Part shown: one piece after another, positions 23,782-29,060 of the stretch
Layout of the letters: the number at the start of each line of letters is the position of its first letter
Position numbering within the stretch: the stretch's first letter is position 1
Sequence record: NC_027349.1
Source of the DNA: Escherichia phage HY01
Length of the DNA stretch: 64,000 bases
Strand: one strand, 5' to 3'
Notes under the pieces: generated by a model
Seen by the model: the letters and a program-made list of their open reading frames with translations, nothing else
The model's database searches: none
What the model was told of the DNA's origin: nothing
Position numbers and translations under genes: made by a program

Positions 23782-24168
23782 TTATTCGAGGGAAAGAAGA
23801 TACTTACTCTGGTAAAACATTCCAGTAATATCATCTATCGTGCTTTGAATGGCTGGAGGCATTTCTTTGTAAATGCTGTTAGATTGGTCTAGTATACGAT
23901 CAATCATTTTAATTGTGTCGGTAGGAAGTTTACTAGCATCTGGAATTGAAGGTGTGTATTTTCTACCAGAATACCCCAAATACTGCTCACCAAATTTATC
24001 AATCAAATCTGGCAACTCAGAGAAAATAAAATCGTATGCCTTGTGTCTAGCATAACTTTTAGTTTCAAAATGCGCAGAATGAAAATAAGCTTGTGCAGCC
24101 ATTAATAAACCTAAGTATTCATCTGCCTTTGAAGGTTTTCCACTTTGTGAAAAGTCGCTGAATTTCAT
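23782..24168 (-). CDS. Hypothetical protein (128 aa)
   Basis: ORF track; 4-nt overlap with rI. Confidence 0.55.
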
Positions 24169-24458
24169 TCAGTCTCCAATTTAATGTTCATAATTCTAGC
24201 GTATGATTGTGCCATCTCCGCGCCTCGTTCTATACATTCAAAATCGGAAGAGCACGGGTCATTTTTATAGGTCGTTCGCATAAAACTATAGAACTGTTCA
24301 GATGATTCTACGCTTTTATTTTCAAAAAGCATATAAACATGTCTAATACCAGATTCCATAAATTTATCAAAATGAGGATCGACATTCGCTTCAATCGGTG
24401 GAGATAAAGCAAACGCTAATCCTAGCATGGCAAATAGTGCCGTTGCTTTTAAGGCCAT
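24165..24458 (-). CDS. rI: Lysis inhibition regulator RI (periplasmic antiholin)
   Basis: 97 aa; N-terminal signal-anchor MALKATALFAMLGLAFA; length as T4 RI; position upstream of tk. Confidence 0.85.
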   Translation of the reverse strand: MALKATALFAMLGLAFALSPPIEANVDPHFDKFMESGIRHVYMLFENKSVESSEQFYSFMRTTYKNDPCSSDFECIERGAEMAQSYARIMNIKLETE

Positions 24459-25668: not shown

Positions 25669-25896
25669 TCATTTTGGTTTACCTTCTTTAACGAAATCAG
25701 GATAAGGATAAAATCCTGAATAAAATCCTTCACCTTTATGATTGATGCATCCTTTATTAGAACAATAGCACCAATAGTCGAAATCACAGGCCATTTCATC
25801 ATTACATAAAGCAAAAACAACAGGCCATTTACACTTTTCACAATGGGCATTTTTAAGAATACTAGTTTGGCTCATAACCATGTAACCTTTAAGCAA
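25669..25896 (-). CDS. Cys-rich small protein (75 aa), possible zinc binding
   Basis: Nine Cys including CEKCKW and CYCSNKGC. Confidence 0.45.
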   Translation of the reverse strand: MLKGYMVMSQTSILKNAHCEKCKWPVVFALCNDEMACDFDYWCYCSNKGCINHKGEGFYSGFYPYPDFVKEGKPK

Positions 25897-26084
25897 TATT
25901 CTTCTACATGTTGTTTACGACCTTTCCTATCAATGAAGGTATATTCAACGAATGTTCCAATATAGTCTTTATCTACATCATGAGGACTATTAATTGGGCA
26001 TTTAGTACGGCAAATGCGTTTCCATTGACGAATAATTTCCACTTTGTTTTTAGGATCAAACGGATGCGGGCAATGTACTTTCAT
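25872..26084 (-). CDS. Cys/His-containing small protein (70 aa)
   Basis: ORF track; CPHPFD...CRTKCP. Confidence 0.45.
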   Translation of the reverse strand: MKVHCPHPFDPKNKVEIIRQWKRICRTKCPINSPHDVDKDYIGTFVEYTFIDRKGRKQHVEEYCLKVTWL

Positions 26085-26535
26085 AATCCACCACTATTAA
26101 ATCAATATCAGGAGTAAACATGTCGATTAATTTAGAAACCTTATCCCAATCACCGCCAGCAATACCACAACCTATGCGTGGAATGTAAATTACTGGTTTA
26201 AACAGAAGGGTCTCTGCCTGTAGATTTAATTCTATCATGCAGTTTACTAAAGCACCATAATCAAGATTAGGACCCGGTTCGTATTGCGTATACAGGTTAT
26301 AGCATATACCAAATCCCGTAGGACTATGTTTAAAAACAATAGACATATCGCCTAATTTATCGCGAGAACCGTACTCGGTAGTAGTTTTATCTATTTCTAA
26401 AATTTTAGGATAGGCCCTCGCTAATTGACCCGCTACACCTGAACCCATAGTATGAAAGCAGTTGCACCCGTGCGCAATAATATTACCTTGAAGAAATAGG
26501 GCGACAATATCGCCCTTGATATATTTTACAATCAT
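26056..26535 (-). CDS. Macro-domain protein (ADP-ribose binding/hydrolase fold), 159 aa
   Basis: GDI...NIIAHGCNC...GSGVAGQLA...IGCGIAGG motifs typical of macro domains. Confidence 0.7.
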   Translation of the reverse strand: MIVKYIKGDIVALFLQGNIIAHGCNCFHTMGSGVAGQLARAYPKILEIDKTTTEYGSRDKLGDMSIVFKHSPTGFGICYNLYTQYEPGPNLDYGALVNCMIELNLQAETLLFKPVIYIPRIGCGIAGGDWDKVSKLIDMFTPDIDLIVVDYESTLPASV

Positions 26536-26873
26536 CTAGTACTCAATCCTCGATTATAAGAATCTACCAAACGGTCAACCATTGAATGACAAGCGGCTTT
26601 ATCTTTCTCCTCCGCAACTGAACATTCTAAGGTATTCCACTTTTTAGCATATCGTTTTAATAAAGTATCGTTCTTGTATCTACTTGATTTATCTCTTTCT
26701 CCGTCTTTATATGCATATATTAATTTCTGCGCAAATTCAGCTTGACATGCTTTATTTTTCCCACAATAATCCGCGGCAGTACGGTTTACATACTCTCTAA
26801 TTTCAGTGTATGATGTATTTGCTAACGCAGAAAATGAAATTAATCCTACACATAAAACCAAAATTTTAGTCAT
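26532..26873 (-). CDS. Secreted Cys-containing protein (113 aa)
   Basis: Signal-peptide-like N-terminus MTKILVLCVGLISFSALA; four Cys. Confidence 0.55.
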   Translation of the reverse strand: MTKILVLCVGLISFSALANTSYTEIREYVNRTAADYCGKNKACQAEFAQKLIYAYKDGERDKSSRYKNDTLLKRYAKKWNTLECSVAEEKDKAACHSMVDRLVDSYNRGLSTR

Positions 26874-27411
26874 TTACTATTTCCAACAGTTTATTATTTT
26901 TAAGGTAGTTAGCCTTTTCTAGGACTTCAGAAGCATATTTAGAACCTGCTTTAACATTCCATCCCGAATTATAAGAGGATATTGCCTTTCTTATATCGCC
27001 CTTATGTATATTTAACCAATAAGAAAGTTCAATGTACGCCCAGGAAGCTGAATTGGACCGTTTATTCAACATTCTTTTTATTTCAGCATCGGTCATATTA
27101 TAACCAAGTTCCTTAACTCTTGCTCGCATGGTCGGCAAATAATTTTGGAACATTCCATAGGCATGATGCTTTGGTTTAGATTTTAAATTAACTCCGGCAG
27201 AGCTTTCTTGCCATAAAATAGCAGCCATTATATGACCTAATCCACTCTTGTGGATATTTTTGTGTGTTTTATATTTTCCATCCTTAGAAAATTGTTCCCC
27301 GAATTGATATGCGTAACGCATGTTATCGAGTTGGACATTACTGAAAGTATGCTCGGAGCTATGTGCCATCATTGAAATGGCCAATAGACCAGCGAGTAGT
27401 GCTTTTCTCAT
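26866..27411 (-). CDS. Secreted lytic-transglycosylase-like protein (SLT domain), 181 aa
   Basis: Signal peptide MRKALLAGLLAISMMAHS; catalytic-region motif ILWQESS and YNSG. Confidence 0.6.
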   Translation of the reverse strand: MRKALLAGLLAISMMAHSSEHTFSNVQLDNMRYAYQFGEQFSKDGKYKTHKNIHKSGLGHIMAAILWQESSAGVNLKSKPKHHAYGMFQNYLPTMRARVKELGYNMTDAEIKRMLNKRSNSASWAYIELSYWLNIHKGDIRKAISSYNSGWNVKAGSKYASEVLEKANYLKNNKLLEIVND

Positions 27412-27418
27412 GCTTACC

Positions 27419-27880
27419 TCATTGAGTTTTAATTACTGCTTTAGAAGCCTTTCCTGGTAAACGACGACTGTTAATAATTGCCATCCTGCACTGAAGCGAC
27501 GGGTCTTTGAACTTCGCATTAGGTTTACAAACTGTAAATCCAAGCCAAAGATTTCCATCTGTGATTTCTAAACGCCCAGGACGATATTCAACCCCATCAA
27601 TAAAATCCTCGTCAATGTCAGGACGCGGAGGCATACTCAGGAATTCATTAACTTCTAAAACATGGTCTTTTATTTTGTGGAATAATTCAAAAACATATGT
27701 CTCATCAATCTCCCGTTGAATTGCACGATCAAGAAGATGTTGAGAATATTTTAGATGAAACGATGAGACCCCTGCTGCTTTTGATGCCTCACGAATCTCA
27801 TTGTTAATTTGACGAAACTCCGACTCAAAGTGACGACGGAGCTTATTTCGACGGATAAAAACTTCTGTGTTGATAGTCAT
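27419..27880 (-). CDS. regB: Endoribonuclease RegB
   Basis: 153 aa, length as T4 RegB; position between tk region and denV; sequence matches my recollection of RegB. Confidence 0.8.
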   Translation of the reverse strand: MTINTEVFIRRNKLRRHFESEFRQINNEIREASKAAGVSSFHLKYSQHLLDRAIQREIDETYVFELFHKIKDHVLEVNEFLSMPPRPDIDEDFIDGVEYRPGRLEITDGNLWLGFTVCKPNAKFKDPSLQCRMAIINSRRLPGKASKAVIKTQ

Positions 27881-27907: not shown

Positions 27908-27937
27908 ATTATACCACAGTCAAGAGGAAAAGTAAAC
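27908..27937 (-). promoter_or_regulatory. T4-type early promoter-like element (GTTTAC / TATAAT) upstream of regB
   Basis: Minus-strand GTTTAC 27937-27932, TATAAT 27913-27908. Confidence 0.45.
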
Positions 27938-28484: not shown

Positions 28485-28698
28485 ATTCTACTTCCTCACC
28501 TGTTCCCAAATCATATTCAACTAAACGAATAGGCTCATGAATGCCATATCCTTGAACAGAAATTTCTGTCGTAGGATAAATTCCATTAATATCACCCATG
28601 TTCCACGCTTCATTAAATTGCTGTTCGCCTGAATTACTAAACCACTCGGCGAAAGCATTTAGCACATCTTTAGAACCTTCAATAATTATCTTTGCCAT
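28477..28698 (-). CDS. Hypothetical protein (73 aa)
   Basis: ORF track. Confidence 0.45.
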   Translation of the reverse strand: MAKIIIEGSKDVLNAFAEWFSNSGEQQFNEAWNMGDINGIYPTTEISVQGYGIHEPIRLVEYDLGTGEEVEYD

Positions 28699-29060
28699 TA
28701 CAAACTCTCAGTAAAGGTACGAGCGATAACGTCGCGCTGCTGTTCCGGAGTCAGAGAGTTAAAGCGAACTGCATATCCGGATACACGGATGGTCAGCTGC
28801 GGATATTTTTCCGGATGCTTAACTGCATCTTCCAGAGTTTCACGACGCAGAACGTTTACGTTCAGGTGTTGACCACCCTCAATTTTAACTGTAGGCTGTG
28901 TTTCAATTTCAATTTCACGGGCATGCAAACCATAGAAAATTTCTGGGTCTACAAAAGAGTCCTCTTTAAAAGTTTTAGAGACAATAATTCGTGCTTGAAT
29001 ACCGTCTTCAAAATAAATAGTACCTTTATGCGTGCCTTCAAGAATTTGATATGCTTTCAT
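28698..29060 (-). CDS. Autonomous glycyl radical cofactor GrcA/YfiD-like protein
   Basis: C-terminal [60 protein letters not shown] matches the glycyl-radical domain of E. coli GrcA as I recall it; N-terminal about 50 aa differ. Confidence 0.85.

Follow-up and report, generated by a model that had tools for sequence, protein, structure and literature searches.

Why does a protein labelled 'valyl tRNA synthetase modifier' in PHROGs and in all databases begin with an apparent signal peptide, and why does its gene overlap that of a predicted exported enzyme? The question is raised by two adjacent genes, vs.1 and vs, in a stretch of 64,000 nucleotides (nt) from Escherichia phage HY01 (sequence record NC_027349.1; the whole stretch is called the window below). 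We propose that vs.1 and vs form a conserved, translationally coupled and early-transcribed module, in which a Sec-exported, enzyme-like Vs.1 would be paired with a disulfide-bonded partner, Vs. We give this reading a probability of roughly 0.5.

The window reads as DNA of a T4-type phage. Its region 26000-27900 matches Escherichia phage PEC04 at 100% identity and many Tequatrovirus genomes at 98%, and the gene order regB, vs.1, vs, tk.4 is shared with records that carry T4 names (PP01; T4, NC_000866). Vs.1 and Vs are 99% and 96% identical, respectively, to the T4 proteins. A preliminary description of this DNA had placed two open reading frames (ORFs) for secreted proteins at 26866-27411 and 26532-26873. 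Both lie exactly there, on the minus strand, and encode 181 and 113 amino acids, respectively; the second had gone unrecognised as T4 gene vs ('valyl-tRNA synthetase modifier'). The features of the two genes are listed here, with pLDDT standing for the predicted local distance difference test.

26866..27411, minus strand: vs.1 coding sequence, 181 amino acids; an ORF with a Pfam SLT match; precursor of a predicted exported GH23/SLT-type lytic-transglycosylase-like enzyme
27358..27411, minus strand: predicted signal peptide of Vs.1, residues 1-18, MRKALLAGLLAISMMAHS then SEHTF; rule-based n/h/c layout; low pLDDT at residues 1-20
27205..27207, minus strand: codon of E69, putative catalytic glutamate of Vs.1, in the motif W-Q-E-S-S
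26532..26873, minus strand: vs coding sequence, 113 amino acids; an ORF matching phrog_1256 (E = 7.5e-40); precursor of a small predicted exported four-helix protein
26820..26873, minus strand: predicted signal peptide of Vs, residues 1-18, MTKILVLCVGLISFSALA then NTSYT; rule-based n/h/c layout
26589..26765, minus strand: the four invariant cysteine codons of vs (C37, 26763-26765; C43, 26745-26747; C84, 26622-26624; C95, 26589-26591)

Predicted export signals are conserved in both families

We scanned the 110 non-nested ORFs of the window with a simple rule-based signal-peptide test (a positively charged n-region, an uncharged hydrophobic h-region of 10-15 residues and small residues at positions -3 and -1). 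Only Vs, Vs.1 and RI passed. With three positives among 110 ORFs, two adjacent ones are well beyond chance. The n/h/c layout is MRK-ALLAGLLAISMMA-HS, then S, in Vs.1 and MTK-ILVLCVGLISF-SALA, then N, in Vs; the predicted mature proteins would begin with SEHTFSNVQLDNMR and with NTSYTEIR (or DTSYTEIR), respectively. The signal peptides that the preliminary description had read on both proteins are thus recovered. The third positive, the lysis-inhibition regulator RI (24165-24458, minus strand; MALKATALFAMLGLAFALSPPIEA), is a periplasmic protein and serves as an internal positive control.

The same test was passed by 51 of 53 Vs-like proteins, 25 of 26 Vs proteins and 32 of 33 Vs.1 homologues, although this segment is not conserved in sequence. 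Of the two Vs-like proteins that fail, one is clearly a false negative, and the other does not belong to the Vs homologues. The N-terminal 18-22 residues of Vs-like proteins keep their signal-peptide character while their sequence drifts. In one lineage (loci L029, L030, L033 and L048; L-numbers denote the loci of relatives), the N-terminus is MKKLFVLLVVFALSGC and contains a lipobox (LSGC). These lipoprotein variants suggest that membrane tethering can belong to the role of Vs.

Two other readings of the N-terminus of the HY01 protein were considered and rejected. The window's own Vs does not have a lipoprotein signal, as 'LVLC' is not a lipobox. A shorter, cytoplasmic Vs made from an internal start is also excluded, as the frame offers no start codon between codon 5 and M98, the next methionine. 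All differences between HY01 Vs and T4 Vs, including an indel of two amino acids, are confined to residues 1-19; over the other 94 residues the two proteins are the same. We infer that Vs and Vs.1 are both exported by the Sec pathway.

Vs.1 resembles family-1 lytic transglycosylases

Vs.1 passes the Pfam SLT model (PF01464) marginally, at 23.4 bits against a gathering cut-off of 21.3 (E = 4.8e-5, residues 61-154), and many Vs.1 homologues carry PF01464 in precomputed tables. In PHROGs, the protein belongs to phrog_600 (unknown function) and has weak matches to lytic tail and endolysin families. NCBIfam has no match for Vs.1 or Vs, and PDB sequence searches with the family profiles of the two proteins returned nothing meaningful.

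The motifs ILWQESS and YNSG, on which the preliminary description had rested the enzyme assignment, are present in Vs.1 (E69; Y147-G150). Across 33 homologues, down to 43% identity, E69-S70, G86/F88/Q89/N90/Y91 and Y147/N148/G150 are invariant. By sequence, E69-S70, G86-x-F88-Q89 and Y147-N148-x-G150 are the three family-1 SLT motifs, with motif II in the variant form G86-M-F88-Q89 (GMFQ, not GLMQ) and motif III reading S146-Y147-N148-S-G150. An hhalign comparison of the Vs.1 profile with the catalytic domain of E. coli Slt70 sets E69 opposite the glutamate of 'ARQESAWNP' and GMFQ opposite GLMQ, in a weak alignment (E = 0.07). The putative catalytic glutamate, whose absence would have refuted the preliminary description, is thus present, invariant and aligned with that of Slt70, which supports in silico the earlier call of a lytic-transglycosylase-like enzyme.

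The AlphaFold model of Vs.1 has a pLDDT of 88 and a predicted template modelling score of 0.82. In a Foldseek search of PDB with this model, the top ~40 matches are all lysozyme-superfamily folds, mostly GH23. They include MltD, a GH23 chitinase, g-type lysozyme, Slt70 and its relatives, phi6 P5 and T7 gp16. The best of them have a probability of 0.9-1.0, E ~1e-2 and a template modelling (TM) score of 0.45-0.54.

Vs.1 has E-S, G-x-x-Q and Y-N-x-G motifs at similar spacing in common with family-1 lytic transglycosylases such as E. coli Slt70 and MltE and P. aeruginosa MltD, and by prediction it also shares their goose-lysozyme-like alpha fold and their periplasmic destination through a signal peptide. 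The sequence similarity is borderline, and the activity of Vs.1 is a prediction. Unlike these enzymes, Vs.1 is minimal: the mature protein (~163 amino acids, ~18.8 kDa, isoelectric point (pI) ~9.7) lacks superhelical or LysM accessory domains. It also differs from them in being phage-encoded and early-transcribed, in having a small partner gene and in a family-specific N-terminal helix (residues 25-38, with invariant Q27, N30, A34 and G38).

Other phage enzymes are comparable only in part. The virion-associated transglycosylases (T7 gp16 N-terminal domain, phi6 P5, PRD1 P7) have a GH23 fold as Vs.1 does, but they are structural or late, delivered with the virion and without a Sec signal, whereas vs.1 is transcribed early, its product carries a signal peptide and T4 can do without it. 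The secreted and signal-anchor-release (SAR) endolysins of other phages are muralytic enzymes that are exported by host Sec independently of a holin. Those are late lysis genes, whereas Vs.1 is made early and causes no lysis; T4-type phages lyse through the cytoplasmic endolysin e and the holin t.

The label 'lytic transglycosylase' may still be overstated. Vs.1 could be an inactive protein that binds peptidoglycan or another glycan, or a hydrolytic GH23 enzyme of the muramidase or chitinase kind. The Pfam score barely above the cut-off, the GMFQ form of motif II and the presence of a GH23 chitinase and g-type lysozymes beside transglycosylases among the best fold matches all leave room for this, and constitutive early export of an active wall-cutting enzyme seems risky for a phage. 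We nevertheless regard it as very unlikely, since all three family-1 SLT motifs are invariant, including the catalytic Glu-Ser pair, which argues for retained catalysis.

That vs.1 resembles SLT enzymes was already known: a 2006 paper described it for T4 vs.1 and orthologous genes and cited earlier PSI-BLAST results for it (PMC1524935). Our literature text searches found no functional work on vs.1 beyond PMC1524935, PMC8076793, PMC9697503 and a preprint (10.1101/2025.11.20.689424).

Vs is a small helical protein with four invariant cysteines

The AlphaFold model of Vs (pLDDT 84) is a four-helix bundle with helices at residues 20-37, 41-61, 68-84 and 89-111 and a low-confidence N-terminus. We aligned 24 diverse ORFs found downstream of vs.1, drawn from 67 viral loci and 19-69% identical to the window's Vs. 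The only residues invariant among them are C37, C43, C84, C95, G58 and G109. Each cysteine pair (C37/C43 and C84/C95) flanks a helix-helix turn in the model, and Vs would thus have two disulfides that staple its helical hairpins. The preliminary description had counted four cysteines in this ORF; that number fits mature Vs, and the precursor has a fifth, C8, in the signal peptide.

No model in a local Pfam search matches Vs, and precomputed tables list PF26829. When the 24 aligned members were scanned against Pfam with E values of up to 10 allowed, no family was common to them and none resembled LprI, Ivy or MliC. An exhaustive hidden Markov model search of 1.84 billion representatives with Vs gave 28 matches and no bacterial homologue. 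All but two repeat-like matches are proteins of ~77-134 amino acids, and every named match is from a T4-like phage (Escherichia, Serratia, Acinetobacter, Proteus and Erwinia phages).

The predicted location of Vs conflicts with its annotation

From its name, Vs should be a cytoplasmic protein and bind valyl-tRNA synthetase (ValRS), after the work of Marchin as cited in PMC8076793. T4 Vs (the tau peptide; phrog_1256; PF26829) and the window's Vs are orthologous, being 96% identical overall and 100% identical in the mature part. The T4 label needs a cytoplasmic protein, whereas the family as a whole, judged by its sequence, would be exported, disulfide-bonded and tied to vs.1. By prediction, Vs is not located in the cytoplasm as a ValRS modifier must be, because the family has a conserved signal peptide, lipobox variants and four invariant cysteines and there is no internal start.

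The annotation may nevertheless be right, which we regard as a serious though less probable alternative. Vs would then be the cytoplasmic tau that binds host ValRS, with an N-terminus that is no functional export signal or that allows partial export; Vs.1 alone would be periplasmic, and the adjacency of the two genes would be synteny. T4 infection has classical in vivo effects on temperature-sensitive ValRS, and mature Vs, at 11.0 kDa, is closer than the precursor (12.9 kDa) to the ~10 kDa reported for the tau peptide. The database label is universal, the protein is described as binding ValRS in the literature cited in PMC8076793, and the defect of a vs deletion is specific to minimal medium, where amino-acid supply and tRNA charging matter.

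Several observations make a cytoplasmic Vs doubtful. First, signal-peptide character is kept in homologues of only 19-27% identity, in the very segment where the sequence drifts, and some homologues have a lipobox there. Second, the only invariant side chains are the four cysteines, whose hairpin-stapling arrangement is typical of proteins of oxidising compartments. Third, a signal-less form has no start codon before M98, and a tau of mature size would itself imply signal-peptide cleavage. Finally, vs adjoins and often overlaps the gene of a predicted secreted enzyme, and insertions in vs.1 have a phenotype in the same direction as those in vs (see below). There may also be dual localisation of Vs, or a wrong ORF may have been assigned to vs. 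The origin of that assignment was not found in our literature text searches, which did not extend to the older primary papers on vs.

vs.1 and vs are paired across T4-like phages

Two sets of relatives were compared: 67 viral loci collected with Vs.1, and 27 loci collected with Vs from an alignment of closer Vs homologues. In ~50 of the 67 loci, a Vs-like ORF comes straight after vs.1, with -8 to +7 nt between them; among these are loci whose Vs.1 is only ~39-45% identical to that of HY01. In nine further loci a Vs-like ORF lies 0.5-1.2 kb downstream of vs.1. Conversely, vs.1 is immediately upstream of vs in all 27 loci fetched through Vs. A Vs-like gene is lacking only at a few loci with a ~41-42% identical Vs.1 and on two jumbo-phage contigs.

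Some vs-like genes appear damaged. At L032 (3549-3876), a lipobox-type vs is split into two overlapping ORFs, by a frameshift or a sequencing error. L015 (3541-3798) and L096 (2402-2659) encode a version of Vs of 85 amino acids that lacks the segment bearing the first cysteine pair. Such genes indicate that vs can decay while vs.1 stays intact.

Several relatives have a third ORF of 139-152 amino acids just before the macro-domain gene, with a signal peptide or a lipobox-like N-terminus (e.g. MKKSIATLIAIGMYGC):

L032, 3873-4292; L039, 3808-4266; L044, 3857-4303; L055, 3856-4296: third ORF
L056, 4109-4549; L057, 4375-4797; L063, 4031-4471: third ORF, further loci

This ORF also occurs in Aeromonas-phage-like loci without a Vs-like gene, and it is absent from the window. 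Its presence suggests that the periplasm-directed cluster is larger in other T4-like phages.

vs.1 and vs belong to a longer early transcription unit

The elements that surround the pair in the window are as follows.

27908..27937, minus strand: T4-type early promoter upstream of regB (GTTTAC, 17 nt, TGgTATAAT)
27419..27880, minus strand: regB (endoribonuclease), first gene of the unit; Pfam REGB_T4, E = 1.4e-68; annotated regB in PP01 and T4
27417..27420, minus strand: Shine-Dalgarno sequence GAGG of vs.1, read from the sequence; overlaps the regB stop codon (TGA, 27419-27421)
26056..26535, minus strand: tk.4 (macro domain), the gene after vs; Pfam Macro, E = 1.3e-7

A promoter scan upstream of regB gave a site with 10 of 12 matches and an extended -10 TG, where the transcript with vs.1 and vs probably starts. 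From this promoter to tk.4, a motif search found neither a late promoter (TATAAATA) nor a full MotA-box consensus, and a scan found no terminator between regB and tk.4. The early promoter and the lack of a terminator or another promoter between the genes indicate that vs.1 and vs are co-transcribed within a longer early unit. The preliminary description was therefore right about co-transcription of the pair. The two genes do not stand alone, being the second and third genes of a packed regB-vs.1-vs-tk.4 unit. The coding sequences of vs.1 and vs overlap by 8 nt (ATGACTAA), and the vs stop overlaps the tk.4 start (ATGA).

Early expression, which had also been proposed for this locus, agrees both with the T4-type promoter and with T4 omics data, in which vs.1 and vs fall into the class early RNA / middle protein and their products were each detected in infected cells (PMC9697503 supplement).

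A perfect GC-rich hairpin, AGGGCGATATTGTCGCCCT, lies at 26498-26516 (found on both strands), 16 nt past the vs stop and within codons 7-13 of tk.4. It is followed by ATTTCTTCAA and is terminator-like by the scan. The hairpin could serve attenuation or stabilisation of the transcript between vs and tk.4.

Disruption of either gene is costly in T4

A published T4 transposon screen, HIDEN-SEQ (10.1101/2025.11.20.689424), includes both genes. vs.1 and vs are non-essential on lysogeny broth (LB) plates. The figures below are mean reads per TA site in liquid competition, in LB and in M9 glucose, followed by the log2 fold change between the media (Extended Data Table 6, sheet S8, of the same preprint).

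vs: LB 26.6; M9 5.0; log2 fold change -2.19; adjusted p ~0; the strongest effect in the screen
vs.1: LB 22.6; M9 11.9; log2 fold change -0.87; p = 0.0055, adjusted 0.155
regB: LB 179; M9 403; log2 fold change +1.17; p = 0.049, adjusted 0.80
vs.3: LB 652; M9 626; log2 fold change -0.06; not significant
tk.4: LB 290; M9 275; log2 fold change -0.07; not significant
tk.3: LB 767; M9 754; log2 fold change -0.03; not significant

Insertions in vs.1 and vs are thus ~10-fold rarer than in the neighbouring genes in LB liquid, and rarer still in M9 glucose. A clean T4 vs deletion forms poor plaques on M9 glucose, and the authors of the preprint read this phenotype through the ValRS label (10.1101/2025.11.20.689424). 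The insertion pattern is specific to the pair and fits a joint function of vs.1 and vs at least as well as it fits the ValRS reading.

Insertions in regB (window 27419-27880) are enriched in M9, in the opposite direction to those in vs.1 and vs; once corrected, the enrichment is not significant. A change in the expression of vs.1 and vs downstream could account for it.

We tentatively suggest that the 'valyl-tRNA synthetase modifier' of T4-like genomes is an exported, disulfide-bonded periplasmic partner of Vs.1, and that the M9 defect is an envelope phenotype of a new two-protein module for peptidoglycan remodelling, not a translation phenotype; on present evidence this is possible, with the odds somewhat against it. 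If Vs is such a partner, the ORF linked to the classical vs locus would be the wrong one, or else the effect on ValRS would be indirect or would come about once cells have lysed.

A possible role in early peptidoglycan remodelling

In the module that we propose, the Sec pathway would export Vs.1 and Vs into the host periplasm. There Vs.1, as a minimal single-domain GH23/SLT-type lytic-transglycosylase-like enzyme, would act on, or at least bind, host peptidoglycan before lysis. Mature Vs (~11 kDa, with two disulfides) would work with it; most likely it regulates or targets the enzyme, holding it back or guiding it, and in the lineage in which Vs is a lipoprotein it would be tethered to a membrane. 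The module would raise phage fitness, and more so on cells that grow slowly in minimal medium. The more cross-linked wall of such cells is a plausible, purely inferred reason for a greater need of the module.

Vs could instead be purely an inhibitor, similar to an immunity protein, of Vs.1 or of host or foreign muralytic enzymes, with the module serving superinfection exclusion or resistance to lysis from without. T4 offers a precedent in Spackle (gp61.3), an early, small helical periplasmic protein with a signal peptide that inhibits the gp5 tail lysozyme; it shows that T4 uses proteins of this kind against a muralytic enzyme. Vs is likewise a small helical protein, predicted to be periplasmic and encoded beside a muralytic-type enzyme. 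Charge points the same way, as Vs.1 is always basic (median pI 9.6) and Vs-like proteins are mostly acidic or neutral (median pI 6.5). Moreover, loss of vs is worse in M9 than loss of vs.1 (log2 fold change -2.19 vs -0.87), as expected if an unrestrained enzyme is harmful.

The comparison with known inhibitors is less favourable. Ivy, MliC/PliC, PliG and LprI-type inhibitors, which control GH22 and GH23 enzymes, are likewise small and either periplasmic or lipoproteins, and conserved cysteines are frequent among them. Vs has no Pfam, PDB-sequence or fold similarity to any of them; it differs from these bacterial proteins in being all-helical and in belonging to a family confined to T4-like phages. 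It also has no sequence or fold match to Spackle. The Spackle gene sp lies apart from gene 5, and its product acts against the enzyme that an incoming phage carries, whereas vs overlaps the gene of its presumed partner. T4 is already equipped with Imm and Sp for exclusion, and the ~10-fold under-representation of vs.1 insertions in LB argues that the enzyme is useful and not a mere liability. We therefore consider a pure inhibitor unlikely.

Because the phage pays for the loss of either gene, and in minimal medium more for that of vs, a partner that restrains or directs Vs.1 is favoured over a pure inhibitor or an unrelated protein. The preliminary description had offered two functions for the pair. 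Early peptidoglycan remodelling may reasonably be proposed, whereas superinfection exclusion is unsupported by present evidence.

Several points weigh against the module that we favour. Export, muralytic activity, the Vs-Vs.1 complex and the disulfides are all predictions. The structural and profile matches of Vs.1 to SLT enzymes are modest (Foldseek E ~1e-2, TM ~0.5; hhalign E = 0.07). T4-type Vs is itself basic (pI ~9), so that charge complementarity fails in exactly the T4 lineage. A few loci with a ~41-42% identical Vs.1 have no Vs-like gene nearby, and Vs.1 can thus exist without Vs. The fitness effect of vs.1 could be partly polar on vs, and it is not significant when corrected (adjusted p = 0.155). 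The in vivo effects of T4 infection on temperature-sensitive ValRS belong here too, as does the classical work, cited in PMC8076793, that assigns vs to a cytoplasmic effect on this enzyme.

The genes vs.1 and vs, their order and the SLT match were already known. Relative to the literature searched, what appears to be new is the family-wide export signature of Vs, the restriction of its invariant residues to the cysteines and two glycines, the obligate coupling of vs to vs.1 and the common phenotype of the pair.

Neighbouring genes

Downstream of the pair, tk.4 has a weak NCBIfam match to the DarG antitoxin, and its T4 orthologue has been named AdfM, an anti-DarTG2 factor (10.1101/2025.11.20.689424). 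An anti-defence gene is thus translationally coupled, through the ATGA overlap, to the end of the predicted periplasmic pair. Two small, overlapping ORFs follow tk.4 on the minus strand, at 25669-25896 and 25872-26084. Both are rich in Cys and His (e.g. CEKCKWP...CYCSNKGCINH; CPHP...CRTKCP), which suggests zinc-binding mini-proteins; in relatives they are annotated only as hypothetical (tk.3-like). At some distance upstream, the ORF at 28698-29060 (minus strand) is vs.6, which ends in a glycyl-radical motif and whose T4 annotation is autonomous glycyl radical cofactor GrcA; its Gly_radical match was noted in PMC1524935.

Implications

T4 is the reference phage, and the role of its ValRS 'modification' has been in question since the 1960s. 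In the 2025 transposon screen, vs is the T4 gene most needed in minimal medium (10.1101/2025.11.20.689424). The label of Vs may be a long-standing misannotation. If Vs is indeed periplasmic and acts with a wall-cutting enzyme, the M9 phenotype and the annotation of many phage genomes would need to be read again. The small Vs fold would then represent a new type of partner or regulator of GH23 enzymes, and T4-like phages would have an unrecognised early step of peptidoglycan remodelling.

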